Positions 2,195 through 61,702 of a DNA stretch of 64,000 nucleotides are shown piece by piece; the stretch's first letter is position 1; every line of letters begins with the position of its first letter. The DNA comes from Octopus vulgaris. Lineage: Eukaryota. The stretch lies in NCBI GenBank assembly GCA_951406725.2, contig OX597833.1:32240001-32304000 (forward strand), read 5' to 3'. A program made the translations under genes and the position numbers. Below the pieces are notes generated by a model. It saw only the letters and a list, made by a program, of their open reading frames with translations, was not told the origin of the DNA and searched no databases.

Positions 2195-4898
2195 TAGTTT
2201 TATTTTTTATAGCGTGCTTTCACTTCACTACCGAGCGCAGCTCTGTGTGCCTTGGGTATGTGCTGTGATTTGTTGTGATGCTCTGATGGTTATTGTATGG
2301 AAAGTGTTCTGCGTAGGATGTGTGCAGTGCCTAGTAGTGCAATTTTCTGTATGTTATATGTGTTTGTAAGTCCTGGTGTTTTTGTTATGTATTTGTCTGA
2401 ATATTTTTTTATCATGCCTAATGCACCTACTATGATAGGAATTGTTTCTGTTTCAGGTTCCACATTCTAGTTACCTCTATTTCCAGGTCTTTGTATTTTG
2501 AGAGTTTCTCCATTTCTTTTAGAGACACGTTGTCATCTGCCGGTATTGATACATCAATTAGAAAGCATTTTTTTCTTCATGATCTCTGACAACTATATCT
2601 GGTCTGTTGGCCTTAATTTCTCTATCTGTGTGTATCGGCATATCCCAGAGTATGGTTGCTTTCTCGTTTTCTGTGACCTTTTCTGGTGTGTGCCTATACC
2701 ATCTTTTTTCTGTTGTTATTCCATAATGTTGGCATAGCTTCCAATGTATGTAGGTTCCAACTCTGTCATGTCTGTGAATATATTCCTTCTTAGCCAGGAC
2801 TGGGCAGCTAGAGATAATATGATTTATTGTTTCTTGTCCATCTCCACATATTCTGCAGTTACTTGTAATATTTCTTTTCATTACATGTTTTTGGTAATTT
2901 CTGGTGGGGAGGCTTTGGTCTTGTGCTGCAATTAAAAATCCCTCTGTTTCTGCTTTGAGTCCTGAGCTTCTCAACCATTGCTGGGATTTTTCTTTGTCTA
3001 TTTCTTTTGCGTTTAGTTTAGTGCAGTATTTACCATGAAGGGGCTTTTCTTGCCATCGTTTTATCATGGCTCGTTGCTGTTCTATTTTTAGTTTGGATTT
3101 CATTTGTTTTATAGCTTTTGTTGTTTCTTCATCATCTTCTTCTTCTTCTTCTTTGTGTTTATTAGGTGGTATGATTTCTTGTTTGTATTTGTCAGCTTCC
3201 TTAAATACTGAGAACAGTTTTTTGTTTTGCTCGTGTTTTGCTGCTATCTGGATCAGTTTTCCTTCCTTCTGAAGTAGGTATTTTTGCAGTCCTATGGTGG
3301 TTATTTTATAGTAGTTTTCCAGCTGTATAAGGCCTCTACCACCTTCTATACGTTGTATATATAGTCTTTCTATGTCAGATTTTGGGTGATGCATCCTAGA
3401 TCCTGTCAGTATTTTTCTTGTTTTCCTATCTATTTTGGACAGTTCATTTCGTGTCCAGTTAAGGATATTGTAGCTGTAACTTATAACTGGGACAGCTAAA
3501 GTGTTGATACCTATTATCTTGTTTTTAACATTGAGCTCTGTTTTTAGTATTGATCTAACTCGTCTATAATATTCTTTTTTTATTTTCTCTTTCATTTGTG
3601 TGTGTTGTGTCTTATCTAGTTCATGGATTCCTAAGTATTTGTAAGTTTGGCTTTGGTCTAATTCTTTTATTTCATTGGTTTTATCTAGTGTGATGTTGTT
3701 ACTCTTAACTAGTTTTCCTCTTTTCATGGTTACTTTGGCGCATTTTTCTAATCCAAATTTCATATCTATTTCTTTGGTAAATCCATGAACTGTCTTTAAT
3801 AGTGTTTCCAGCTGTTTGTCATTTGCAGCGTATAGTTTTAGGTCATCCATATATAAAAGGTGGCTGATCGTTTTGCCGTAACATTTATATCCGCATCCAG
3901 TTCTATTTAGCATATCAGATAGAGGTGACAGTGCCAAGCAGAAAAGGAGTGGAGAGAGCGTGTCTCCCTGGAATATTCCTCTTCTAATGGGGATGTCTTT
4001 GGTTTTCATGAGTCCCTCTTTTGTTTGGAGGTGTAGGACTGTTTGCCATTTATTCATAGAGTGCTCTATGAATTTTATGATTGTTGGTGCTACTTTGTTA
4101 ATGGCTAGTGTTTCGAGGATCCATGTGTGGGGAATGCTATCAAACGCCTTTTTGTAGTCAATCCAGGCGATACTGAGGCCTTTCTTCTTTCTGTGGCTGT
4201 CTTCAGTTATGGCTTTATTAATCATTAGTTGATCTTTACAGCCATATGAGCCTTTGCGGCATCCTTTCTGCTCTTCTGGGAACAGTTTGTTTTCGTCCAG
4301 GTGCTTGTTCAGCCTTTGTGATATCACTGCAGTAAATGCCTTGAACATAGTAGGGAGGCAGGTTATTGGTATGTAGTTTTCTGGTTTTTCTGTTTCATTT
4401 GATTTGGGAATTAAGATGGTTTTCCCCTTCGTGAGCCATTCAGGCATTGTCTCTGGCTCTGCTAGTACTTTGTTAAAGTTTTCAGCCAGCTTTTTGTGCA
4501 TTCTTGTTAAATATTTCAACCAGAAGTTGGGGATCTTGTCATGCCCAGGTGCCTTCCAGTTGCTTAGTCTTTGCAGTGCCTGGGTGACCTCTTCAGTTGT
4601 TATGGGGGTCCAAAGTTGTTCAGATGCCGAGTTTGTTATTCTGATACTCCTTTTTTTGGTGGTTCGTTCGCCGACCATATTTCTCCCCAGAATTCTTCCA
4701 ATTCTTCTGCCGTTGGTGCTGCAGTAACTTCTATTTTATTTTTGCCCAGTTCTTGGTAGAACTTTTTGGGGTCGGAGTTGAACTTTTTGTTCTGTTCAAA
4801 GAAGCGTTGGCGTTTCTCGTACCGGCGGATCCTTTGAGCTTTGGCAAGGATATCTTGCTTCAGCTTTTCTTTTATCTCCGGCAAATCTTTTTCTGTCA

Positions 4899-5499: not shown

Positions 5500-8045
5500 T
5501 ACGTCCCACTAACAGAAAGTAAAGAAAGAGATAGAAATGTTGCTTGGAGACAGCAAAAAGGGTACACTCACTGATTATCCTCAAGCAGGAGCAAAAAGCT
5601 GTCAGTGAAAAAATCCAACATCAGAAGAGAATAACCGAGAGAAAGAACAATAACAAAAAATTTAACCGCAACCAGGCATCTGTATACAGAGACATGAGAG
5701 GAGGAGCAATAAATATCACGGAAGCTTCTTCAGGAGAAGACATAGACATCTTCTGGAGGAAAATTTAGAATGAAGAGAAGGAATTTAACCAAGATGCTCT
5801 GTGGTTGGAAGAAATCCGAAAAAGTTACTACTCCTGCGTTACATCCAAGACATACAGCATTGATGGTGAAACTCTTGCGACTGTGATCCAGAAACTCCAG
5901 TATGGAAAAGCACCTGGAAGAGACTTGATTGTTGGATATTGGTACAAGAAGCAAACATTCTGCCAACCATATCTTATCAATCTATACTAGCAATCTATCA
6001 TTGGGAACAGTAGCATACCACACTGGTTATCTCTGGCAGAGACAAAATTGATTCCCAAATAAGGAACCACCCTCATGGCAAAAAACTGTTGGCCAATTGC
6101 ATTCTAGAAGAGCATGTTTAAACCTCTTCCTCCAAGGCTATTGTGAAACCAATAACATTATCGCAGCCGAACAAGCAGCTTGGAAGAAGGGAGTCTGGGA
6201 ATGTACCGAGCAATTGTTAATCAACAAAACTGTGATGTTAGAGGTGCAAGAGCATAGGAATAACCTAGTTTCAATGTCGCTAGATTACAAGAAAACCTTT
6301 GACTCTATTCCCCACTCATGGATGCTAGAAGCCCTTCAACTTACTAAAGTTCCAGTGAGAATAGTCAAAGCCATAACTGACCTGTCTTCATCGTGGGCCA
6401 CCATCTTGAAATTGAACACAAAGAGTGACTGTATTATCACCCATAGAATACAATATGGCAAAGGCATATTCCAAAGAGACAGCCTCTCTGTGATGTTGTT
6501 TATACTTTCTGTAAACACCCTGTCATTCATGTTAAGGAAGTCTGAAGGATATCTCACTGGTTCACAAGGAAACAGAAATACCAAAATTATACACTATTTC
6601 TTTGTGGATGACTTAAAACTTCAGGCAAAGAATATGCATGAGATGAAAAAGACCTTGACCTAATTACAACATTCTCAAAGGATGTAGGATTGGAGTTTGG
6701 TCAGGATAAACATTGTTATATGGCTGTGAAAAGGGGGAAAACTATAAACCAGACTAACAACATCTCCATCAATGATTTGACTGTTTCCCCTGTATCTGAC
6801 GAGAAATGTTACAAGTATCTAGGGGTGGATGAAAATATACCTTACAGTGGCACCTGTAACAAAATACATGTCACTAAAGAATATTACAGCCGAATAAAGA
6901 AAATTTGGACCTCACTCTCTGCATTCAATAAAACAGTAGCCCACAATGTGTTTGCAGTGCCAGTACTCATGCCAACATTTGGGCTGCTTCATTGGACGCT
7001 TGATGAGATCCAAGCCATTCATGTGAAAATCCACAAAATATTAACAAGCACACATAATTTCTGCATAAACAGTGACATAGACTGCCTCTACCTAAAACAT
7101 AAACACGGCAGCAGAGGCCTAACATCAATCCAAAATACCTTTGAATGTTGCATCATATCCCTTCGGCAATATCTTTTAATCACCAAGTGTCGAAGTGCAT
7201 CCCTTGAGCAAGTTTGCATACATGAGGCTGATAACATCATAAGACTTGGAAGGCAGCTCCTTGAGCAACACTCTTTGTTTGATAACCTAGAATACTTGCT
7301 CAAAGAAATCACACTACTGCAACGTATCATCAGAGGAAAGGATGAGCCTATATGAACAGAAGACTATGCATGCTCCGTGGTGATAGTAACATTGATCATC
7401 AAAGTAGTTTATCATAGATGAATAGCCGGATTACTATCTCCCACTTTGAAGGGTATGCGTTTGCAATCCAGGAACAGGAAATATCAACCAAGTACTTGAT
7501 GCACAAAAGGGATAGAGATGCGAAAAAAGCAGTAAAATGTGACAACCGAGGCAGACTTTGTGGAGTTCATACTGAAGATATCACCCACATCATAAACAGT
7601 TGTCCGAAAATGTCACCACGGTATTATCTGCCAATGAGACGTGACATTTTAGCTAGGAGACTCTGCAATGAAATTCATCAGAAGGATAATCCCGTGGACA
7701 AAGAAATAAGAACCCACAATATGGTAGACGCCATAGCCACTCATAATGAAAAAGAATACTGGTGGAATGTTCCAGTGAAAACCTCAATAAAATGTAAGCA
7801 GAACTGGCCTGATATAATGATTTGGGATAGAGAAGAAAAACTTTGCACAGTTGTGGAAATTAGCTGCCTAGTGGATGTTAACCTAAAGCTGAAGATCAAT
7901 GAAAAAGAGAACACCTGTTCTGAATTATTGAGAAATCTACAGTTACTCTATCCTGATTACAAATTCAGGTTTATACTTGTAATTACTGGGGCCCTTCAAG
8001 AAGTTCATCATTGAAATATATATGAGCATGCCTAGATATGCAACT
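5500..8045 (+). mobile_element. Decayed R4/Dong-like RLE LINE (family B) flanked by (CATA)n
   Basis: ORF pieces 5805-5990, 6097-6663, 6690-7355 and 7418-8014 give KAPGRD, LDYKKTFDSIPH, GIFQRDSLS, FFVDDLK, YKYLGV, RLCGVHTEDITHIINSC, WPDIMIW. Confidence 0.88.
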
Positions 8046-18227: not shown

Positions 18228-18334
18228 GTACTAGCTACGGCGGTACATATTCTAAAATTGGAACCATACAGAGAAGATTAGCATGGCCCCTGCGTAAGGC
18301 TGACACGGAAATTCGTGAAGCGTTCCATAGTTTT
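18228..18334 (+). pseudogene. U6: Full-length U6 snRNA copy, probably a retropseudogene
   Basis: 107 nt colinear with U6, including ATACAGAGAAGATTAGCATGGCCCCTGCG and AAATTCGTGAAGCGTTCCATA-TTTT; several substitutions; repeat DNA upstream with no visible promoter. Confidence 0.93.
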
Positions 18335-34816: not shown

Positions 34817-35332
<516 letters not shown>

Positions 35333-39385: not shown

Positions 39386-39550
39386 TTGATGTATTTCAGA
39401 AATCGGTATTTCTTGGAACTGTATGCATACTGCGTAAAGCACTGTCTTTCTGAGGTCGTTGTTGTGTCTTGACGGACAGTAAAATTCTCCGGCACACGCA
39501 TTATCTTCAATCTACAACATCACAATATTGGATTCTGTGCGGCGCCTTCA
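39386..39550 (+). mobile_element. 3' end of Dong-like LINE (family D)
   Basis: QKSVFLGTVCILRKALSF* plus a 3' UTR homologous to 41379-41530 (minus); followed by GAT/AAT repeats. Confidence 0.7.
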
Positions 39551-39554
39551 ATAG

Positions 39555-39598
<44 letters not shown>

Positions 39599-39649
39599 AT
39601 GATGATGATGATGATGATAATAATGGTGATGATGATGATGAGGAGGATG

Positions 39650-39698
<49 letters not shown>

Positions 39699-39720
39699 TA
39701 ATAATAATAATAATAATAAT

Positions 39721-41302
39721 AAAACCAATGAAATAAAAGAATTAGACCAAAGCCAAACTTACAAATACTTAGGAATCCATGAACTAGATAAGACACAACA
39801 CACACAAATGAAAGAGAAAATAAAAAAAGAATATTATAGACGAGTTAGATCAATACTAAAAACAGAGCTCAATGCTAAAAACAAGATAATAGGTATTAAC
39901 ACTTTAGCTGTCCCAGTTATAAGTTACAGCTACAATATCCTTAACTGGACACGAAATGAACTGACCAAAATAGATAGGAAAACAAGAAAAATAATGACAG
40001 GATCTAGGATGCATCACCCAAAATCTGACATAGAAAGACTATATATACAACGTATAGAAGGTGGTAGAGGCCTTATACAGCTGGAAAACTACTATAAAAT
40101 AACCACCATAGGACTGCAAAAATATCTACTTCAGAAGGAAGGAAAACTGATACAAATAGCGGCAAAACACGAGCAAAACAAAAAACTGTTCTCAGTATTT
40201 AAGGAAGCTGACAAATACAAACAAGAAATCATACCACCTAATAAATATGAAGAAGAAGAAGAAGAAGAAGAAGAAGAAGAAGAAGAAGAAGAAGAAGAAG
40301 AAGAAGAAGAAGAAGAAGAAGAAGAAGAAGAAGAAGAAGAAGAAGAAGAAGAAGAAGAAGAAGAAGATGAAGAAACAACAAAAGCTATAAAACAAATGAA
40401 ATCCAAACTAAAAATAGAACAGCAACGAACCATGATAAAACAATGGCAAGAAAAGCCCCTTCATGGTAAATACTGGACTAAACTAAACGCAAAAGAAATA
40501 GACAAAGAAAAATCCCAGCAATGGTTGAGAAGCTCGGGACTCAAAGCAGAAACAGAGGGATTTTTAATTGCAGCACAAGACCAAAGCCTCCCCACCAGAA
40601 ATTACCAAAAACATGTAATGAAAAGAAATATTACAAGTAACTGCAGAATATGTGGAGATGGATAAGAAACAATAAATCATATTATCTCTAGCTGCCCAGT
40701 CCTGGCTAAGAAGGAATATATTTACAAACATGACAGAGTTGGAACCTACATACATTGGAAGCTATGCCAACATTATGGAATAACAACAGAAAAAAGATGG
40801 TATAGGCACACACCAGAAAAGGTCACAGAAAACGAGAAAGCAACCATACTCTGGGATATGCCGATACACACAGATAGAGAAATTAAGGCCAACAGACCAG
40901 ATATAGTTGTCAGAGATCATGAAGAAAAAAATGCTTTCTAATTGATGTATCAATACCGGCAGATGATAACGTGTCTCTAAAAGAAATGGAGAAACTCTCA
41001 AAGCACAAAGATCTGGAAATAGAGGTAACTAGAATGTGGAATCTGAAAACAGAAACAATTCCTATCATAGTAGGTGCATTAGGCATGATAAAAAAATATT
41101 CAGACAAACATAACAAAAACACCAGGACTTACAAACACATATAACATACAGAAAATTGCACTACTAGGCACTGCACACATCCTACGCAGAACACTTTCCA
41201 TACAATAACCATCAGAGCATCACAACAAATCACAGCACATACCCAAGGCACACAGAGCTGCGCTCGGTAGTGAAGTGAAAGCACGCTATAAAAATAAAAC
41301 TA

Positions 41303-43370: not shown

Positions 43371-43660
43371 TAGGCTTCTGTGTGGTTACCTTTCCTCAGT
43401 GTGAGAAAACCACAAGCTAGCGACGAAAGTAACCACCCAGAAACCTAGGTGTGAAAGTAAGGCTAGAGATGGGAGCGATGACATCCTTTGCAAAAACTAT
43501 ACAGACACAGACTGTGTGTCGATGGCCAGCTAGAAAAGATATTTTCCTGGGGCTAAAACAGCAGTAGCATTGTATTGTCCTCTATAAAGCTGCCACATTC
43601 TGTTGGCATATAAACATTACTATCCGGTACAGTTACTGTATATCTCTCCCTCAGGGATTT
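43371..43660 (+). mobile_element. Diverged copy of the 351-nt HHR unit with an inverted 5' fold-back
   Basis: GACACAGACTGTGTGTC..GCCAGCT..GATATTTTCCTGGGGCTA..CAGTAGCAT aligns to the reverse complement of 54878-55030; decayed HHR GCGACGA..GAAACCTAGGT at about 43420-43450, with a mirror copy at 43371-43413. Confidence 0.7.
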
Positions 43661-43689
43661 AAAACAAGTTGTTTTTCTCTATAAAATAT

Positions 43690-50914: not shown

Positions 50915-51216
50915 CAATATACACACACACACATATATATATACATGTATGTATATGTGCATATTCATATCTATTATATCAAAGTCAATGTCTTTATGTG
51001 TGTTCGTGTGTTACTTATACATTCGAAAACTGCAGCACCGACTGTCGTTAAGGAATCCTAAGTTAACACGTCAGAGATATAATTCAAATTTTCAAATTAT
51101 ATATATATATATATATATATAACGGGAAGGTTTACAAAATAAACAAAAGACGAAGGCAGGTGGAGTACAAACAAACAATGTATTAGTATGGCGGTCAGGA
51201 ATAGAAATAGAAGAAG

Positions 51217-51254
51217 TCTTTTACGTTTCGAGCCTACGCTCTTCGACAGAAAGA
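51217..51254 (-). ncRNA. Minimal hammerhead in pLTR with non-canonical core CUGUCGA
   Basis: TCTTT-CTGTCGA-A-GAGC-GTAG-GCTC-GAAA-CGTA-AAAGA. Confidence 0.72.
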
Positions 51255-52050
51255 TACACAGAAAAAAACAAGGAGAGAAAAAAATGCGTGTAGGAGCTAA
51301 CGATCTATCATGGCGTCCTGACTTCGGACAGTGGTCAGGGAAGATAACAGGGTCAAGTGACTTCCAAAACGAAGGTGCCCCCAACACAAAGGTGCGTGTG
51401 TGTATAAGAGAGTATGTATGTGCGTGTGAAAGAGGGCTGGTGGTCTGGACGTGTGTGTGTATGTATGTGTGGGTGTGAAGATGTGGGGATTGGTGTGTGG
51501 GTGGTGTGTTGTGATGTGATATGTGTATGTATGTGTAGGTGTAAAGATGTGAGGATGGGTGTGAGGGCGGTGTGCTGTGGGTGGTGTGTTGTGATGTGAT
51601 GTGTAATGTTGTATGGTATAGTGTAGTGTGGTGTGATGTTGTGGGGAGGTGGGGAGGCGAGAGAAGGGAAAGCCCAGGTGGGGTGTGGGTTCGGCTGGGA
51701 GTTGGGTTGAGTGGGGGTTGTGGGGGATGGGGGAGAGTGAGAGGGGGAGAGAAGGGAGGGGAGGAGGGGAGAGAGGAGATGAGGGGGTGGAGGAGAAGGA
51801 GGAGAGGGAGGGGAGAGGCGGAGAGGAGGGGAGTGGTAGGGAGAGGAGAAGAAGGGGGAGGGAGAGGGGAGAGGGGGAGGAAGAGGGGAGAGAAGGGAAG
51901 TGAGGGAGCTGAGAGAAAGAGAGAAGGGGAAGAGGGAAGAAGAGAGAAGAAGAGGGAAGAAGGTGGAAGGAGGGAAAGAAGGGAAGAGGAAGGAAAGAGA
52001 GTAGGGGTGAAAAGATGAAGGGCTGAAGAGAAGTAGGAGTCGGGGGTAGG

Positions 52051-54199
52051 TTAGATGAAAAGGGGGGAGTTGAGACCAAATGGCGTAAAAGAGTGAAGAG
52101 AGAAGATTAATCCCTGTTTACGGCGCAAGCGGGAATCCGGATGGCCTCTGTGCAAGGACAATCCGAACACAGACAGGTGTTGCAAGGAGTGACCGGTGGA
52201 GCGGAAATGGCGTGAGACTGGAGTGTCATTGGCGAGGCGGATGTCTCGGAAGTGTTCCGCGAACCGGTCAGCCAAGCGGCGTCCCGTTTGTCCGATGTAC
52301 AGGGAGTGGCAGAGAGAGCAGGAGATGCAATAGATGATATTGCTGGAGGTGCAGGTGAAAGAGTCGATGATGCGATAGGGTCGATGATGGGTGCCGGTGA
52401 GGAGGGTGGTGTTGGAGAGATAAGGGCAAGTGCGGCAACGTGGGCGGGAGCAGGGGAACGAGCCAGGTTGGGAGGTAGGTTCAGGGAAGAAGCTGTGGAC
52501 AAAGAGGTCTCGTAGGTTATGGGCTCGTTTGAAGGAGGGGAGGGGTCGGTTAAAGAAGAGGTGTGAAGTGGACGGGTCGGACTGGAGATGCCGGAAAACT
52601 CGAAGAATGGTGCGTTGGAGAGGTAGGGTGGTGGGGTGGTAAGTGAGGGGAAAAGGGAGGCGGGAGACTGCAGGGCGGATTCGGGGGGAGAGAGCAGATG
52701 CACGGTTTACGGAACGTGCTCTGGCAAGGGCGGTGTGAATAGTGGTGAGGGGGGTATCCACGTAGGATGAAGTGGCGAGCCATGAGTTGAGACTGAGTTT
52801 CAAAGTCATGGTCGTCACAACAGATCCTACGTAGACGGAGGAATTGGAAATAGGGTATGGAAAGCTTGGTGTGTTTGGGGTGGGAGGAAGAGAAGTTAAG
52901 GTATGAGTGTGAGTCTGTGTGTTTGTAGTGAATGGAGGTGGTAAGAGTGGAGTGATGAACGCTGTCCGAAATGTCGAGGAAGGAGGCATAGGTATTGGAG
53001 ATAGTGCAGGTGAAGTGGAGGGCAGGATGGAAGGATTGAACGAAAGAGAGGAAGGAGTCTAGATGTTCACGGGAGAGTGAGGCGGCTCCGATAATCTCGT
53101 CAATATAACGACCGTATAGTTCGGGAGTGGGACCAGGGAAACTAGAGAATATTTGGGCCTCAACATAGCTAACGAACAGGTTCGCATAGTTGGGGCCCAT
53201 TCGCGTTCCCATGGCCACTCTCGAGACTTGTTGGTAGAACTCGTCCGCGAACGAGAAGCAGTTAAGGGAAAGGACAAGTTCGGACAGACGAATGAGTGTG
53301 GGGGTGTCGGGTTCGGGGTTGGGGCGGAGGTCGAGAAAGTGTTGAAGTGCACGCAGTTCTTCGGGGTGAGGGATGACGGTATAGAGGCTCTGGATGTCCA
53401 TTGTAAAGAGGAGTTTGGAGGAGCCGGGAGGAAAGGAGAAAGAGTTGAAAAGCCGGAGAGCATGGTTGATGTCGTAGATATGAGAGGGAAGAGACGCCAC
53501 TAGGGGGGCAAGGACACGGTCGAGGTATTTTGAGATGAGCTCTGTGGGGCAGTTACAGGCGGAGATGATGGGGCGGCCAGGGTTGTTGGGTTTGTGGATT
53601 TTGGAGAGGAAGTAAATGGTGGGGGTGCGTGGGGTTCGGACAATGAGGTTGGATGCAGTGTGGGGGAGACGGGAGGACGAGATGAGATCGTGGACAGTAG
53701 AGGAGACCGTCTGTTGGTAGCTAAGCGTGGGGTCAGAGGACAGAGGGGAGTAGAAGGAGGTGTCATTGAGTTGACGGAGCGCCTCGGCCCTGTTGAGGTC
53801 CGCGCGCCACTCCACCACAGCTCCACCCTTGTCGGCCGGTTTGATGACAATGTCAGCGCGCTGTCGGAGGGAACGAAGAGTCGAGAGCTCGGCCGGGGAA
53901 ATGTTGAGGCGGCGGTGACGCCTGGAGAAGTTGAATTGCTCTAACGCGCGCTGACAGGCACCCGCGAAAAGATCCACTGCTTGGAACTGGCCGGGGGCAA
54001 GCGTCCACTGGGATGGTCGGCGGCCCAGGTCAGTGAAGCAGTCCTCCTTGTTGGATGCGAGTGGTATGTCGCGGAAAAACGCACCCAACCGGACGCGGCG
54101 CACAAAGCTGTGGACATCAGCACGCGTCTGGAATTCCTTACAGGATGGAGTGAGGGGGATGAAACGTAGGCCCCTACTGTGGACGGAGCGTTCCGCCAC
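52051..54199 (-). CDS. Penelope-like RT / GIY-YIG endonuclease polyprotein with one frameshift at about 52750
   Basis: IKPADKGG, PGRPIIS, FTMDIQSLYT, MGTRMGPNYANLF and RYIDEI in ORF 52550-54199; CSRPRCRTC, NIIYCISC..YIGQTGR, RFAEH and GLN in ORF 52051-52989; the frame changes in a G6 run at 52749-52754. Confidence 0.92.
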
Positions 54200-54842
54200 A
54201 GAGAGGGGATGATCTGGGGGAATGGTAACAACAGACTGAAATGGAGAAGAGGTGGATGGAATAGGAGTAGGAGGGGTGGTAGGGATGGTGGAGGTCTGAG
54301 GGGGAGGGAGTGGGGAGGTGTGTGTGGGTTGTTAGGAGGGACAGTGGGGTTAGGTGTGGGTGGGTGGAGCCTATCAGGGGGGAGAAGGGTAGTGGCGTTG
54401 GGTGTGATGGAATGGAGGAGTGATTGGCGTTTACGAAGTTTAGTATTGGAAAGAAATTGATGAAAGAAGTGATTTAGATGGATAATGAAGCGCAATGCAT
54501 GCATACATACATATGTACATACATATATGAGAATACAGCGTGAAAGCACCAAACTACTTTTGTTGATCTTAGCTTCACGGAACAGCATACTATATATATA
54601 TATATATATATATATACATTCGCTAGCTTTCTTACAAAGGGGTCTTAGCTTAGACTTTTTGGGGGCAACAATATCGAACAATCTCAAGTGTAACTGCCCG
54701 AAAAAGTTGTGACTTCAGGGACTTGAGTGAGGAAAGAAAGTCACGAATGACCCGCCTTTTTTTGCCTCTCCTTTTAATTGTTGTTTCTCTTATCCGCCTA
54801 TCTGTCTGAATGTTTTAATGCCATCTATTGCATTTTTGTTCC

Positions 54843-54882
<40 letters not shown>

Positions 54883-55041
54883 GCATATTTGCCATTTGAA
54901 TATGGCTAACCCATAAGGGTGGATGCTACTGTAGTTTGTAGCCCCAGGAAGATATCTCCTCCAGCTGGCTATAGACACACTATCTGTGTCCTCTCAGTAT
55001 TTGTGAAGGGGAGTCATCCTCCCCGTCTTCAACACATGATA

Positions 55042-55086
55042 CACACGTACCCGAATTTCAAGGTGTTTACCTTTCATCAGCGTGTG
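55042..55086 (-). ncRNA. Type I hammerhead ribozyme
   Basis: CACACG-CTGATGA-AAGGT-AAAC-ACCTT-GAAA-TTCGGGTA-CGTGTG: 6-bp stem I, 5-bp stem II, short wobble stem III, GUA site at 55048. Confidence 0.85.
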
Positions 55087-55319
55087 ACAATCATGATTTC
55101 GATGAATTTCTTTATTACGATTATAAAATCATTACATAGAAGGACAATACAGGACATACATACAAAAAATAGTTAAGTGGTTCGATTAAAAATTTTCCAT
55201 AATATATGGATTATTCCTTATACAAAATTTGTATTTAAATTGTCCTTTGCATTGACTAATAGAACATTATAACATTACATAGCTTGAGATCTTACCGATA
55301 TATTTTAAACCCCGGCAAC

Positions 55320-58300
55320 CTATAAGGCCCCGCAGCTTTTCTTTCCTCTCCTCCATCCATAGTTTCTGACACCCACCTTTTTTGCCACTTCCTTCCATCT
55401 TTTTTCATACACACCTCGTGGTAAGATCTTCTTTTCCAGCCCCATTTTGCTCTTCAGATGATATCTGAAGTAAGTGAGCAAGCCGGGGCCTGAGACAAAG
55501 GCTCCTATTGCGACTCCTTCCATTCTTGTACGCCACATGCATTCTTTTACTACTGCAACCGTGCAGTGAAAACATGCCTCACCTTCCTTCGAGAGTCCAG
55601 TTGGCGGTATCATCTTAATCATAGACTCAGCCGACAGCTGTACTCGTCCCAGATGCGATAACACGTGTTCTGCGTAACTTATCAAGTCTGACAACTTCCG
55701 ACAGTGTACAAAAGCGTGCTGGACGGTTTCATCGTCCAACCCGCATCTTGGACACGTCGGTGGCACCGAAATTCCGTGCCGCGATAACTTCTCGCGAACA
55801 GGTAAAGCATTCCTATAACACTGCCAGGCCAGGGATCTTTGGAAGTTATCCAAATACCCCGTCCTGAAAGTCTTTTTAAACAGGTTGGTAAGCTGGTCTT
55901 CGTCAAACCCCAGAGCCCCTCCTAGGACGTCGTCGTTCTTTGCCTCTACCAGCCTGCTATAAAATACCGAGGTGGTATTTCCGCAGCCGGCCTTGCCCGC
56001 CTTGTGGATCAGCGTGAGTGCCTGCCGGCACTCTTTTTGCTATAAAGTCAGATTCCGTCTTTTGATGTGACCGGGTTTAAAATTCACTAAGGAAGCCGGT
56101 CTCGGGAAAAATTCCCCTGCCAGCGGACTCCACACCTTATCACCCTCCAGGTGGTGCCAGAGATGCTTCAGCCTCAACGCATGCCTGCGCATCATCAACC
56201 AAGGCATTCCTAACCCACCCTTTAACGGTTCCTGGCAGCAAACGGAGCGCCTCACAAGTGGCTTTCCTCCCTTCCACAAAAAGCGGAAAAGGATTCGCTC
56301 CAACTTGCTAAGCCATGAATCGGGGCAAGGGACAGCGGTCAGGCGGTAAGTGATTACAGATGCAATGAACATCTGTGCTACCTCCGCCCTTCCTTTCAAG
56401 GACAGAGACCTTCCGGACCAGGTCCGTACTATGGCCTCCACCTTGTCCGTCACCTCACTCCAATTCCTCTCCGTTTGGGAGTCTGACCCAAACCAAACTC
56501 CTAGCAACTTAACTGGACCATCCGTCCAGTGTCCACGACACTGGACGATATCGACTTGCTCCTCCAGGTGCCGAGGCGCAAGCCAACCGACTTGTCCTTG
56601 TTAACCCTTGCTCCTGCCACCGCCTCGTATCCTCTGATAGCATCTTCTACACAAGGTAGCTGGGCCTCATTGGACACGATGAGGGTGACGTCATCCGCAT
56701 AAGCAGTAACCGTCCTCCCACCTCCGATCTCATCCGGGTTACTTCCCAGCCTCTCCAACTTTCGCAGCAATGGCTCGAGAGCCAACACGTACAAAAGTGG
56801 TGACAAGGGGCACCCTTGACGAACTGAACATTCGATCGAAAACGGTTCCGTTAGGTAACCGTTTATCTGGACGGTGGACTTGATGCCGCTATACATAGCG
56901 GAGATCCACCCGCGAAATTCAGGGCCCAGTCCAGCCGCTTCGAGGACCGTCGCCAGGTACTTATGGTCTACCCTATCGAACGCTTTACTTTGGTCTAAAT
57001 GGACCATTACCCCGCCCTTGCCGGTTAATTTACCCACCCTATCTAAGGTGTAGCGTATAAAGTGAAGATTTCCTGGATCGACCTGCCTGGAATTGCACAT
57101 GTCTGTGCTTTCCCTACAAGTTTCTCCACGACAATCGTCAACCTTTTTGCCAACACCTTGGCCAAAATCTTTAACTCTACATTAAGTAGAGTTATGAGCC
57201 TGTAATTACTAATGTTATCCCCCTTGCTCGGGTCTTTCTAGATTAGCGTCACCACTCCCCGGTTTACAGAACTGGGAATTCTCCCATTCTGCTGCCAGTT
57301 CGCGTAGACACCTGCCAATATTCCCCCGAACAAGTCCGGCATACTTTGGTAAAACTCGTAGGGCAGACCATCCAACCCCGGCGACTTCTCCCCGGCGCAT
57401 CCGGCCAGTACCCCCTCTATCTCCTCGGGAGTGATCGCTCCTTCACAGCACTCCACCTCACGCCCCGAGAGCCGCGGTCCGCCGGCTAGGAAGTCCTTTA
57501 AGGCCCTCCCCCGCTCCGGCGCAACACCACCCCCGAACGCGCGGGCGAAATGCTGGTGAAGAAACTTTTGCATCTCCTCCTGTCCATAGATCTTTTGTCT
57601 CTGTTCGTCAGTTAAAGACTTGATTGAAGCTTTGTTACCTCTCTGACTCTCCACTCGACGGGCCCATCCGGCAACGTTAATACCTTCTCGTTTCCCAGCG
57701 CGTAGCTTAGCTCTAACTCTGCAACCTTCGTGTTTGGAGTTAAGGTGACGGTACAATACCGTCCTTGCCGCCATCACTCCGGATGCAGAGCCAGCTTCCA
57801 TTGCCTTAACTAAATCGTCCTCTATCCTAGACCTATCTAACCTTAGCTGATTGCTAAATCTAATGGACTCTGAACGAATGGCTCTTTTGAGGGAGTGCCA
57901 CCATCTATTGTTAATGATGGTGCCACACAATGCCCTCTGTACTAACACCTTAATCCGGGTATGGAAGTCTTCACAATTCAAAATAGACTTGTTCAGCTTC
58001 CAGTACCCGGGTCCCTGTCTATGGCACTTATCTAATTGCACCCTACAAGTCACAAATTTGTGATCCGTGTAAGGCACAATGTGAAACCGTGGACAACTAA
58101 ACGTATCCTTATCTCTTTTCCTAACGAATATCCTATCTATATACGATCTGTGTGAGCCGTCGTTGTTACTCCACGTCCACTGTGGAACGCTCGGCTCATC
58201 CAGTCGATAACGGTCCACTAGATAAAAGCTCTCTAGTAGACCCTTGAGGCTAGGGTTCCCCTTCCTATTAGTTGAGCCAACATTGTCGACCCGCGCTTCG

Positions 58301-58728
58301 AGGACAGTGTTAAAGTCCCCTACTAAGACTACCGTTTTCGACGTCGCTAAAAAGTGCTCCAAATTCCGAAAAAAACCCGCCTACCTACACTCATTCGGAG
58401 CGTAGACAGCTACCAACCTGAAGGACTGTTTACTTACGTGGTTCACATCCAGAACGACCAGCCTGCCTTCTGGGTCCAGAAAGACAGTACTTACCTGCAA
58501 GTCCAAGCTCTTCCTGATAAGGACTGCCACGCCTCTTCCTCTTCCTCGGCTAGGAGAAATAAATTTCTCGAAACCATTTAGAAGAGGCGAGAACGCTTGG
58601 GCCCCGTTCATCTTGGACTCGGTTACAATAGCTACGTCCACTCCGTGTGTCGTGAGGTCGTTCAGAAAACAAATTTGTTTCCATTTCGACCCCATTCTAC
58701 GCACATTCACACAACCCAGCTTTGCCAA
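55320..58728 (-). CDS. Tx1 ORF2 (APE endonuclease, RT, C-terminal Cys motif), split by several frameshifts
   Basis: CVNVR, VAVYAPN, LVGDFN, SYIDRIF, TDHK, GPGYWKLN, KSPGLDGLPYEFY, LDQSKAFDRVDH, VRQGCPLSPLLY, AYADDV, GGLGMP, CPRCG..ETVQHAFVHC. Confidence 0.92.
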
Positions 58729-58755
58729 TGTCGGAGAGAGAAAAAATAAATAAAC

Positions 58756-60192
58756 TTACGGTTGGGACAGGGAGCATGACAGTTTAAATCTGCCTGCTTC
58801 CCCTTCTTCCTCCCTTGTGGTCGTAGCTGCAGGGCTCTTAACCGGCGTTGCCATCGGGCTCTGGGTAGGTGTGGTTGCCGGGGTTATAATAAGTTTACCC
58901 TCCAGTATTTCATTCGTTACATCTCTGATAAGATTATTCTTTAAATGTTCTTGTAGTGTTTTTTCCTTCCACTCGTCTTCCTTTATTTTTGCAAAGCGAG
59001 TGGTTGATTTTGTGTCTGTAGACTTACTGAATAGTTTAAATTTTGAAAATTTGAAATACTTGTACACCCTATCGTTCTTCTCGTCAAATGCTATAATCTT
59101 TTCATTTTTTTTTATCAATTTTTTCAAATCTTGTTTTATGGGGAGGGGCTTGGCGAACTGTCTTCCAATGAATACAGTGCCGTGGGGGTAGGGTTGGGGA
59201 ATTTGTTTTGTATGTATCTCTGCGGTGTTTGCTGATTTTTTCTTTGTTTGGGGAGGGGAGTCCAGGGTGTTATCTTTCTTTTCTTTTGTGTGTCACCTGT
59301 GTATATTCCATTTGTTCATTTTCATCTTCCGTTTCGGTTCCTTTCCTTGTCGCAGTCTTGGGTTCTGTTTCCGCTTTTTCTTTTTCAGTGTTTGAAGCAC
59401 TTTGAGGAGGGGCTTCGTTGATTTTCTTTTTTTTATGCAGTTTGAGCGGACGTGACCCTTTTCGCCACATTTGAAGCACCTAGGTCTGCGCCCCTCCACT
59501 GACACTCTCATTGAAGTTCCCTCCTCATTAAATACCCTATCGGGTAAGTTTTCTAGTATCTTATTTTCTGCTTGAACGAGGAGTTCTAGCGCTTGTCCTT
59601 TCCAGTGCACCTCCTCTTTCCTTCTCATCTGCAGAATTGAAACTTCCCGCTCTACGTTGTGCAGGACTGCCGCTGCTACCCACATTATATCATACCCTCT
59701 TGGTATATCCTCTACATGTAGTTTGGCTGTTCTTTTTCCCATATACGTAGGTAGCAACATGATATCCTCACTTTTCAAGGTCATTGATGACACCTCTCTT
59801 GCCACATCAGCCGAGTCGAAATGTGCTTCAACGGTAGCGCTGCGAGCACCTCGAACAACGTGGCGAATTTTGTTCCACACCGGGGACAAGCACTTTTCTA
59901 CTATCTCGTTCTTGACATCCATTATTTTTTTTTCTTTGTTGCTATAAACTTTGTATACAACTGTCTTTGCCTTTATTTCCTGTACCTTCGCTTGCGGCGG
60001 TACCAGTTTAATTTCATTGCCTTCCGTTTTTACCAAGTTCCGGTATTCGAATAACTGTTCAATCTTGAATTCTACATCCGTTACGGTTCCGCCCACTGCG
60101 GCCGAAAAAGACTGTTTTTTGACTTCGGTATCCTTTTGTTCACCTTTTCCCATCACGGGAAAGTCGCTCCTCGACGCCAAGTCGAACTCCAT
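58756..60192 (-). CDS. Tx1 ORF1 (gag-like, CCHC zinc knuckle), frameshifted
   Basis: SFSAAV N-terminal motif and CFKCGEKGHVRSNC; continues in ORFs 59270-59479 and 58756-59127. Confidence 0.82.
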
Positions 60193-60677
60193 TTCTCAAA
60201 TTATGAGAACAAATGTTGCAAAAAAATTACCTCGAAGGTAATGACAATGTTTAAACAGAATTTTCCGCCCCGTAGGGCGAAAATTACTGTTACACAACGG
60301 ACAACTGTTCAATTCACGAGTAAACACAAACAACGACGAACAAAAAATACGAACTCACTCAACAAAAAGGCAGCAAAATTCTCAAAACGCAGATGAAAGA
60401 GGGGTCCCTAGACGAATAACAATCATGGTTTCGATGAGAAGTCAGATCCCTTCACAAATACATATACTTTTTCCAGTGTCGATTTGACACTGATATTGAA
60501 AAAGTGATATCAAACAATGATAAATCTCAGAGCGAGTTATAACAGTAGCGGTAACACATCGTGATGCATATTTGCCATTTGAATATGGCTAGCCCATAAG
60601 GGTGGATGCTACTGTAGTTTGTAGCCCCAGGAAGATATCTCCTCCAGCTGGCTATATATATATATATATATATATAT

Positions 60678-61565
60678 TTGATATAGGATAAAATTTTTTT
60701 CGGGAAAAAATTTTTATCAATGGCCAGCATATCAAAAAATGCCTGTAAAGGTAAAACTTATACATAATTTACAAGATAAGGGCAGAAGAAAAATTCTAAT
60801 GCCAGATACGCCGAAACAAAAAAATTGTCGATAACCATTAAATTTATGCGTCTCGAAATTCCGTGGGTATGAATAAGTATTTCATTTATATCTCGCGTAT
60901 GTGCCGCTGAAAAGGGGAAATTTCTTGTGAATTAACCCCGAAATTGGACCAATACGGTAATAACGAATTTTTTAGAGATTTCTATCGGTTTGTTTCGAGA
61001 CGCATAAATTTAATGGTTATCGACAATTTTTTTGTTTCGGCGTATCTGGCATTAGAATTTTTCTTCTGCCCTTATCTTGAAAATTATGTATAAATTTTAC
61101 CTTTAAAGGCATTTTTTGATATGCTGGCCATTGATAAAAAAATTTTCCCGGAAAAAATTTTATCCTATATCAATTATAAATAGATTAGTGTTTCACTTCC
61201 GGATTCTATCACTCTGTGAAAGTTTCTAGTTCGAATCACACGTGTCTCGAGGTGCGCCTAAGATTTTTCTATTTGGATATATTTTGGGTACTTAAGTCGG
61301 CTCGGTACTTGGTGCTTGCTTCTTCCGTGGGTATGAATAAGTATTTCATTTATATCTCGCGTATGTGCCGCTGAAGAGGGGAAAATTTCTTGTGAATTAA
61401 CCCAATACGGTAATAACGATACGGACCAATACGGTAATAACGAATTTTTTAGAGATTTCTATCGGTTTGTTTCGAGACGCATAAATTTGATTATTATCGA
61501 CAATTTTTTTTGTTTCGGCGTATCTGGCATTAGAATTTTTCTTCTGCCCTTATCTTGTAAATTAT
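60678..61565 (+). mobile_element. pLTR/retrozyme-like non-coding element: 464-nt direct-repeat period plus 180-bp inverted arm, in (TA)n
   Basis: Inverted arms at 60678-60858 and 60993-61173; direct repeat starting at 60859 and 61323; HHR motifs at 60904-60957 and about 61368-61434. Confidence 0.8.
60904..60957 (+). ncRNA. Hammerhead ribozyme with G8A core mutation
   Basis: CCG-CTGAAAA-GGGG...CCCC-GAAA-TTGGACCAATA-CGG; the sister copy at 61371 has CTGAAGA. Confidence 0.65.
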
Positions 61566-61599
61566 ATATATATATATATTTATGTGTGTGTGTGTAATA

Positions 61600-61702
61600 A
61601 ATCTCTGAGCGAGGTATAAACAGTAGCTGCACGACATCGTGAAGTATATGTGGCTAACCCCTAAGGGTTAGCCACATTTAAGTGGCAAATATACTTGACG
61701 AT
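61600..61702. repeat. Snap-back fragment of the 351-nt HHR unit
   Basis: Matches about 60523-60602, then reverses at CCC-CTAA-GGG; 13-bp perfect stem at 61648-61677. Confidence 0.7.

Follow-up and report, generated by a model that had tools for sequence, protein, structure and literature searches.

A 353-nt hammerhead retrozyme family in Octopus vulgaris with two fixed 3' ends and a Tx1 LINE that inserts at one site within it

A 64,000-nt stretch of the Octopus vulgaris genome (assembly GCA_951406725.2, contig OX597833.1, positions 32,240,001 to 32,304,000 of the forward strand; hereafter the window) contains a copy of an abundant repeat that carries a hammerhead ribozyme and is interrupted by a long interspersed nuclear element (LINE). 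Based upon this copy and its relatives across the genome, we consider it probable that the repeat is a non-LTR (long terminal repeat) retrozyme of 353 nt, moved by the borrowed reverse transcriptase (RT) and endonuclease of a Penelope-like element (PLE) that copy one circular RNA from both cut strands of the target, and that a Tx1-type LINE inserts into it at a fixed site. The unit, the conserved ribozyme fold, the geometry of the ends, the multi-unit arms, the haplotypes shared within insertions and the Tx1 site can all be read directly in the DNA, and it is from these that we infer the cycle.

The original prediction, made from the letters of the window, removed the LINE and one target-site duplication (TSD) and joined 54878-55105 (228 nt) to 60438-60560 (123 nt) to give a unit of 351 nt. 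The arithmetic holds, and the join occurs naturally elsewhere. With the left half as query, the octopus genome yielded 2060 candidates; 40 of them were scored and the best 30 loci fetched, and in 27 of these 30 the left half runs directly into the right half. The other three are split by Tx1 and comprise the window itself and two loci (L002 and L018 in our numbering) that are the two ends of a single locus. Intact copies elsewhere have units of 352–353 nt, the window copy being 2 nt shorter than 353. We number the unit on a natural dimer with a 353-nt unit (L008), taking the base after the predicted ribozyme cut as c1. Exact 24-mers from the ribozyme core and the 3' region matched the genome 187 and 1611 times, respectively, and the control not at all. 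With a GC content of 0.42 and a longest Met-started frame of 46 aa, the unit is non-coding. The parts of the window copy are as follows.

54848..54877: (TA)n of the target next to the 3' end of the retrozyme
54878..55105, minus strand: 3' part of the retrozyme, c295-c353 then c1-c170; 54878 is the 'short' fixed 3' end of the family (c170)
54997..55010, minus strand: first arm of a 14-bp long-range stem, c35-48
55048..55080, minus strand: hammerhead core, comprising CUGAUGA, helix II with a 4-nt loop, GAAA, a 3-bp helix III and GUA; predicted cut 55048/55047
60438..60560, minus strand: middle part of the retrozyme, c171-c294
60448..60461, minus strand: second arm of the 14-bp stem, c272-285
60516..60560, minus strand: 'tail' segment (approximate), c171 to c216-219, bounded by the family's two fixed 3' ends
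60561..60656, minus strand: start of a second unit, 96 nt, c75-c170, ending at the variable 5' end and meeting (TA)n via a common TATA
60653..60677: (TA)n of the target next to the 5' end of the retrozyme

The copy is one-armed and 447 nt long, with the short 3' end and a 5' end at c75, and (TA)n flanks it on both sides, as had been predicted. At 1.27 units it holds one ribozyme and could not itself yield a circle; it falls outside the 'active' class as defined in the available part of bioRxiv 10.64898/2026.07.22.740005.

The minus strand bears a canonical type I hammerhead, with CTGATGA at 55080-55074, GAAA at 55059-55056 and a GTA triplet ending at 55048. The cleavage triplet varies between GUA and GUC in the family, and in helix III of the window copy a U.G wobble replaces the C-G of the family. 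Because an Rfam cmscan at E<=1 reported no hammerhead match in the window, the motif was read directly and then tested by covariation. Among 23 divergent copies, drawn from 31 listed retrozyme flanks downstream of Tx1 insertions, 93% of cells in helices I–III are paired and 11 of 20 pairs have changed on both sides, compared to 0 of 500 shuffles, a figure that should not be taken as a probability because the copies are related. The 91-nt ribozyme region by itself is not unusually stable (z = -1.1). Folding of the monomer had been suggested along with the original prediction; in the fold obtained from cut to cut (z = -5.4, 0/100 shuffles), the two ends pair with each other and a multibranch is closed by the 14-bp stem. 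The stem itself, predicted as a perfect complement and confirmed at 54997-55010 and 60448-60461, retains 94% pairing, mostly by G.U-tolerant changes, across 18 of the 20 copies selected, the other two having been excluded as rearranged. A conserved hammerhead motif with predicted cleavage is lodged in an abundant repeat that encodes no protein.

Insertions were mapped at 100 loci found by best match or ribozyme core, 70 found by the 3'-region motif and 26 long ones; removal of 17 duplicates and six Tx1-split loci left 173 insertions, or ~170 of more than 1000 in the genome. In the sense of the ribozyme, their 3' ends are fixed. Among arms in the first two sets, 223 of 242 end at c163-179 or c212-225, with centres at ~c170 ('short') and c216-219 ('long') that lie 46–49 nt apart. 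The 5' ends are variable, and arm length ranges from ~30 to 3148 nt. Two arms set head to head, with both 3' ends outward, make up 98 of the 173 insertions, and these comprise 84 with one long and one short end, one long+long, one short+short and 12 with one atypical end. One long and one short end thus occur together in 84 of 86 classifiable two-armed insertions (p = 5e-23). Arm junctions (n = 99) overlap by at least 2 nt in 48 cases, a count that derives from alignment ends and may be inflated, and contain a gap in 32. (TA)n lies on both sides of 105 of the 173 insertions, a flanking direct repeat of at least 8 nt is seen in 22, and neither in 46; among those 22 direct repeats, 14 are non-simple TSDs of 12–15 bp, possibly including 1–3 nt of microhomology. 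No LTR structure is seen (variable 5' ends, TSDs above 4 bp), although a primer-binding site and polypurine tract were not searched for. Tandem arrays of 2–9 units occur in the family, with a ribozyme in each unit.

These distributions modify two elements of the original prediction. The 96-nt terminal redundancy is present (60561-60656 duplicates 54878-54973 with one mismatch in 96), but since overlap length varies across the family it marks the window copy's own 5' truncation point and is not a family constant. The expectation of circular permutation with variable breakpoints was borne out for the 5' ends and not for the 3' ends, which are fixed at two internal sites. The copies form a continuum, within which a monomer with an overlap is a single case, and they do not permute freely.

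Fixed internal 3' ends combined with inverted arms are the 'tail' signature of PLEs, and a Penelope-type RT/endonuclease likely inserts the repeat. Two internal 3' ends with a tail, and an inverted arm, are described for Poseidon_Ac (PMC11167929), Adineta elements (PMC3846280), and Naiad/Chlamys and MRC1 (PMC8557442) in the portions of those papers available, as are AT-rich or (TA)n targets with TSDs of ~10 bp, compared to 12–15 bp in the retrozyme. The retrozyme differs in having no open reading frame (ORF) and a tail of 46–49 nt, against 30–40 nt in PLEs. In the same excerpts the tail is optional or often at one end only, being found on one of the inverted ends in PMC3846280 and PMC8557442, whereas in the octopus repeat exactly one end bears it under the rule given above. 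According to the accessible part of PMC11167929, the Poseidon_Ac protein starts reverse transcription in vitro at two internal sites bracketing the tail, cuts and extends both strands of AT-rich DNA, and is predicted to form a dimer. The rule of one end of each kind would fit one start per DNA strand. Head-to-head arms are explained in PMC3846280, as far as its available text goes, by self-priming on antisense RNA, whereas the retrozyme data fit priming from both DNA ends.

We provisionally take the LINE in the window copy to be of the L1/Tx1 type, a label that comes from the original prediction. It lies in the same orientation as the ribozyme.

55106..60418, minus strand: Tx1-type LINE, full-length but broken
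60195-59293 + 59292-58756, minus strand: Tx1 ORF1 with a zinc knuckle, split by a stop
58380-55320, minus strand: Tx1 ORF2 (APE, RT, zf-RVT), in four frame pieces
55087..55105, minus strand: downstream copy of the Tx1 TSD, by which hammerhead helix I retains its 5' strand downstream of Tx1
60419..60437, minus strand: upstream copy of the Tx1 TSD; transcription of the repeat is predicted to start at 60435 (c297)

The element has matches to PF00098, PF03372, PF00078 and PF13966, including the C-terminal zinc domain, ends in AATAAAGAAAT without poly(A), and is bounded by a 19-bp TSD with one mismatch. The original prediction treated it as a chance interruption, a view that its relatives overturn. 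In a genome search with the 3' end of the LINE and no flank, from which 30 of 40 matches were fetched, 27 of the 30 ends (window included) lie at the same site, 25–26 nt upstream of CUGAUGA, in retrozymes of subfamilies 72–99% identical. The exceptions are a duplicated target of another Tx1 (L081), a position just upstream of a different hammerhead-like motif (L084) and an unrelated site (L077). This proportion in one target lies above the criterion of more than 20% of flanks given in the available text of PMC4494074. A tree of 67 of 68 Tx1 3' ends, one duplicate having been dropped, places the window copy in a clade (SH-aLRT 100) of which 28 of 30 rows lie in the retrozyme. In a second clade, three rows are in the retrozyme, two at the start of U2 genes and one elsewhere; members of a third precede a different TA-flanked, hammerhead-like repeat, and further ones insert into themselves or vary. 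The flanking subfamily is consistent between the 5' and 3' sides in 14 of 15 full-length Tx1 copies, closely in 12 and roughly in the two oldest. This Tx1 family targets one fixed site of the retrozyme. With helix I left whole downstream of a LINE that has no poly(A), read-through RNA could be cut 58 nt past the end of the element.

Several related elements were observed in the same surveys. Sister Tx1 families form head-to-tail arrays of up to ~9 full-length copies with a period of ~5.28 kb and many open frames of 1148 aa (L231-L239 and L244; G000:C9:59.20-59.25 Mb and C5:29.18-29.21 Mb), formed by self-insertion into the 5' target. A Tx1-retrozyme composite was considered for these arrays of ~5.3-kb period and ruled out, as they are sister families inserted in their own 5' target. 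The Tx1 3' flanks at L241, L246, L250 and L265 belong to a second TA-flanked hammerhead-like repeat, with the core CTGCATTGA and not CTGANGA, which is a target of sister Tx1. The flank at L084 is a third and more distant hammerhead-like repeat with a CCGATGA core, and C for U at the same core position recurs in one retrozyme subfamily.

The Tx1 site falls at a candidate promoter.

60489..60494, minus strand: sole ATCAGT motif of the unit, 59 nt above c297; candidate promoter element of small nuclear RNA (snRNA) type

Of 30 U2 loci, 28 carry the related motif AT[CT]AGT between -57 and -61, and the other two have Tx1 directly upstream; old retrozyme subfamilies keep ATCAGT as ATCAG[CT]G. This is suggestive, though not proof, that c297 is a transcription start under an snRNA-type promoter. 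At another locus (L245), ~45 nt above the Tx1 5' end, a TATA-like box stands 28 nt before the initiator-like site that a sister Tx1 occupies, an arrangement consistent with start-site targeting beyond snRNA promoters. The window also contains a U6 snRNA match (18228-18334, plus strand, 102.7 bits) with simple-repeat-like sequence and no ATCAGT motif upstream, possibly a retrocopy.

The nature of the RNA template can be approached through variation within insertions. The 5' ends are not in excess at the cut (6/28, expected 4.1, p = 0.21) or at c297 (7/41, expected 6.4), and pile-up at the two arms of the 14-bp stem is not significant (16/71, p = 0.11; 12/44, p = 0.20). In the set chosen without regard to the ribozyme, 33 of 93 arms cross the cut site, and single insertions with PLE ends carry up to six near-identical units (L314, L315). 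Full units diverge by 1.0% within a locus versus 6.1% between loci, and in four arrays of one subfamily an allele is private to all units of an array. Polymorphic sites agree within an insertion in 203 of 217 comparisons of tandem units and 467 of 497 comparisons of two arms (94%), compared to 63% between loci. Rare alleles are shared at 10 of 5904 sites between tandem units and 26 of 14,313 between arms, versus 5.4e-5 between loci, with the caveat that the pairs are not fully independent. Arms pass through the cut with no stall and extend to as many as six units, and those of one insertion have haplotype and rare alleles in common; for these reasons we favour, with good though incomplete confidence, a circular template over a linear one. 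Contigs of seven presumed-RNA runs cover parts of the unit, including across the ribozyme, and are uninformative on strand, ends or circularity.

The same PLE machinery could instead have copied an uncleaved linear multimer from a homogeneous array, or have jumped between linear monomers, circles then being absent or irrelevant. Homogeneous arrays of 3–9 units do exist, so uncleaved linear multimers could give similar copies. In the accessible part of PMC11167929, uncleaved RNA was the dominant substrate in vitro and cleavage was dispensable. Mixing of alleles between units also occurs in a few insertions, such as L008, whose units differ at common alleles. Differences at common alleles are seen in 34 tandem and 107 arm-arm comparisons, many at CpG-like sites. 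The nine-unit array L313, which is not in TA, has alleles common to subsets of its units, a sign of later DNA-level turnover. However, an internal promoter would shorten each generation of linear copies and so require a separate source of long arrays, and the long arrays L314, L315 and L319 themselves bear fresh PLE ends. Moreover, the locally expanded L313 differs from those three by 12 fixed alleles, rare alleles are common to tandem units as often as to two arms, and the c35-48/c272-285 stem closes a monomer from cut to cut. We therefore regard a linear template as unlikely.

It is much less probable that the repeat is the pLTR (pseudo-LTR) of an autonomous PLE and its copies 5'-truncated pieces of that element. 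Fixed 3' ends, a tail, inverted arms and TA targeting are pLTR traits, and 24 of 57 Xenopus families are homologous to known transposable elements, nearly all PLEs, in the part of bioRxiv 10.64898/2026.07.22.740005 available. Yet arms extending in the 5' direction re-enter the unit up to 6–9 times and not an ORF, the unit has no Met-started frame above 46 aa, and the hammerhead is canonical and not of the minimal PLE type. Fixed ends attached to a Penelope ORF had been named as the outcome that would contradict the original prediction, and a coding extension is common to 0 of 64 single-arm 5' flanks. These flanks hold no common extension except Tx1 and one pair of unrelated repeats, and the PLE protein matches found at six of the loci, outside the window, are not continuous with the unit. 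The least probable reading has Tx1 travelling with the repeat as a composite, in which case the fixed site would go back to a single old insertion that was amplified. The location of nearly the entire window Tx1 clade inside the repeat would fit, as would one Tx1 copy with a foreign 5' flank (L043/L082). Against this, the retrozyme flanks come from many subfamilies and mostly match on both sides, 5'-truncated Tx1 copies (L078, L090) occupy the identical site and have retrozyme sequence to either side, and the sister clade uses both the retrozyme site and the first base of U2 genes.

The proposed retrozyme cycle and its fixed-site Tx1 must be interpreted with caution, because several observations count against them besides those drawn upon by the linear alternative. 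The insertion samples were chosen by similarity or exact motifs, which biases their length distributions. Covariation of the 14-bp stem is weak, with four double changes, and two of 500 shuffles reach the pair count. The promoter case rests on a 6-mer and about three U2 promoter types. In the available portion of bioRxiv 10.64898/2026.07.22.740005, eight of nine Xenopus elements remained uncleaved in vitro. The discordant Tx1 copy L043/L082 (G000:C20:29.656-29.661 Mb) has ~70 nt upstream of c297 from a different retrozyme subfamily than the rest of its host copy, which points to an RNA starting further upstream (5' transduction) or to gene conversion. Finally, no autonomous PLE of matching sequence was found, and the ends of the window's Neptune-type element do not align with the unit.

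That Neptune-type Penelope element spans 51117-54560 on the minus strand, is flanked by (TA)n and encodes RT (52550-54331) and GIY-YIG (52051-53058) in different frames. It has ~1900 candidate pLTR matches in the genome, and 30 copies show one fixed end in (TA)n, the query being one that could not reveal a tail. Considered as the partner, it shows no sequence similarity to the unit. The three PLE-end regions of the window gave no match to the retrozyme unit, a comparison that covers the window's PLEs. A solo pLTR-like piece in (TA)n lies at 34918-35330 on the plus strand and has a minimal hammerhead motif at 35160-35194.

In the retrozyme cycle we propose, transcription would begin at ~c297 wherever two or more ribozymes follow the ATCAGT element, two self-cleavages would free a monomer, and a host ligase would close it into a circle. 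A PLE protein, possibly a dimer, would bind the c170-c219 region and make a staggered cut of ~12–13 nt in AT-rich DNA, with one DNA end priming at c216-219 and the other at c170. Both complementary DNAs would run round the circle, stop at variable points and be joined head to head, often via a few shared bases; where one arm failed, the other would be joined straight to the target, as in the window copy. Tx1 would have landed later at the predicted start site of that copy, to be driven by its promoter. More tentatively, and with somewhat more doubt than belief, the family might be an in vivo record of a whole cycle in which a PLE dimer works on one ribozyme-made circle, with one start per strand and rolling synthesis. 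On this reading the repeat would have its own snRNA-type promoter, and Tx1 would have evolved to hit that start site, as well as U2 +1, with capture of the promoter and perhaps use of the still-intact downstream hammerhead to cut the 3' end of its RNA. One start per strand, if true, would explain both the PLE tail and second-strand synthesis.

At the level of its sequence, the unit is a metazoan non-LTR retrozyme, a known kind, and shows every trait of that class: a type I hammerhead, a non-coding unit of ~350 nt, a GC content of 42%, monomers to multimers, TSDs above 4 bp and coexisting PLEs. It lies within the retrozyme size range of ~170–400 nt and is low in GC and self-paired. Non-LTR retrozymes are described from coral, mussel (350–390 bp) and axolotl (331/353 nt) in the available parts of PMC7229834 and bioRxiv 10.64898/2026.07.22.740005. 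In those same parts, co-occurrence and pLTR homology are the grounds on which mobilisation by PLEs and a circular template are proposed, and insertion ends are not analysed. In comparison, the octopus copies show two fixed priming sites, the rule of one long and one short end, and rare alleles shared within insertions; no pLTR homology was found at the PLE ends of the window, and the circle is predicted. The assignment to non-LTR retrozymes, the Penelope-type RT and the copying of circular or tandem RNA, all put forward in the original prediction, fit the genome-wide copy structure.

The octopus Tx1 resembles Tx1-clade LINEs such as Tx1L in Tx1D, Keno in U2, Tx1-Mar in Mariner-N4, and Kibi/Koshi, which in the accessible text of PMC4494074 combine APE and RT with a fixed repeat target and a TSD of ~19 bp. 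It differs from them in that its target is a hammerhead retrozyme, entered at the predicted transcription start. Sister Tx1 clades in the octopus genome hit U2 +1, the second hammerhead-like repeat, the 5' ends of other Tx1 elements, or varied sites. We found no paper on a LINE that targets retrozymes or on two-ended PLE priming of retrozymes, although the cephalopod entries of Repbase and the family tables of the preprint might hold the family or its Tx1. Beyond the known retrozyme literature, the present sequences offer insertion-level evidence that points to two-ended PLE priming on one template, and a LINE that targets the repeat.

The original prediction also listed relatives of the unit at 43371-43660 and 61600-61702. 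Both are related, but neither is an equivalent unit.

43382..43661: old decayed relative (68–80%) with a short inverted arm and degenerate hammerhead cores
61597..61702: two-armed 106-bp insertion of an older subfamily (82–84%), with arms ending at ~c212-216 and ~c170 and no hammerhead

Beside the window retrozyme copy is an imperfect 520-bp palindrome (83%, 60666-61185) with a partial direct repeat at 61323-61573, resembling a miniature inverted-repeat transposable element. Broken LINE RT frames of other families lie at 2558-4735, 6052-8014 and 39454-40665.

By itself, the unit is an ordinary addition to a known family. The enzyme that spreads animal retrozymes, and the rolling-circle writing of their arrays, have been proposed and not demonstrated in the parts of the literature available. 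The octopus family supplies a 353-nt substrate, mapped starts at c170 and c216-219, an AT-rich target and a stagger of ~12–13 nt for a PLE assay in vitro, and makes the sharp prediction for such an assay that there would be one start per strand. The near-identical sister Tx1 clades, with their different start sites, offer a natural setting in which to study target choice and target switching by LINEs.

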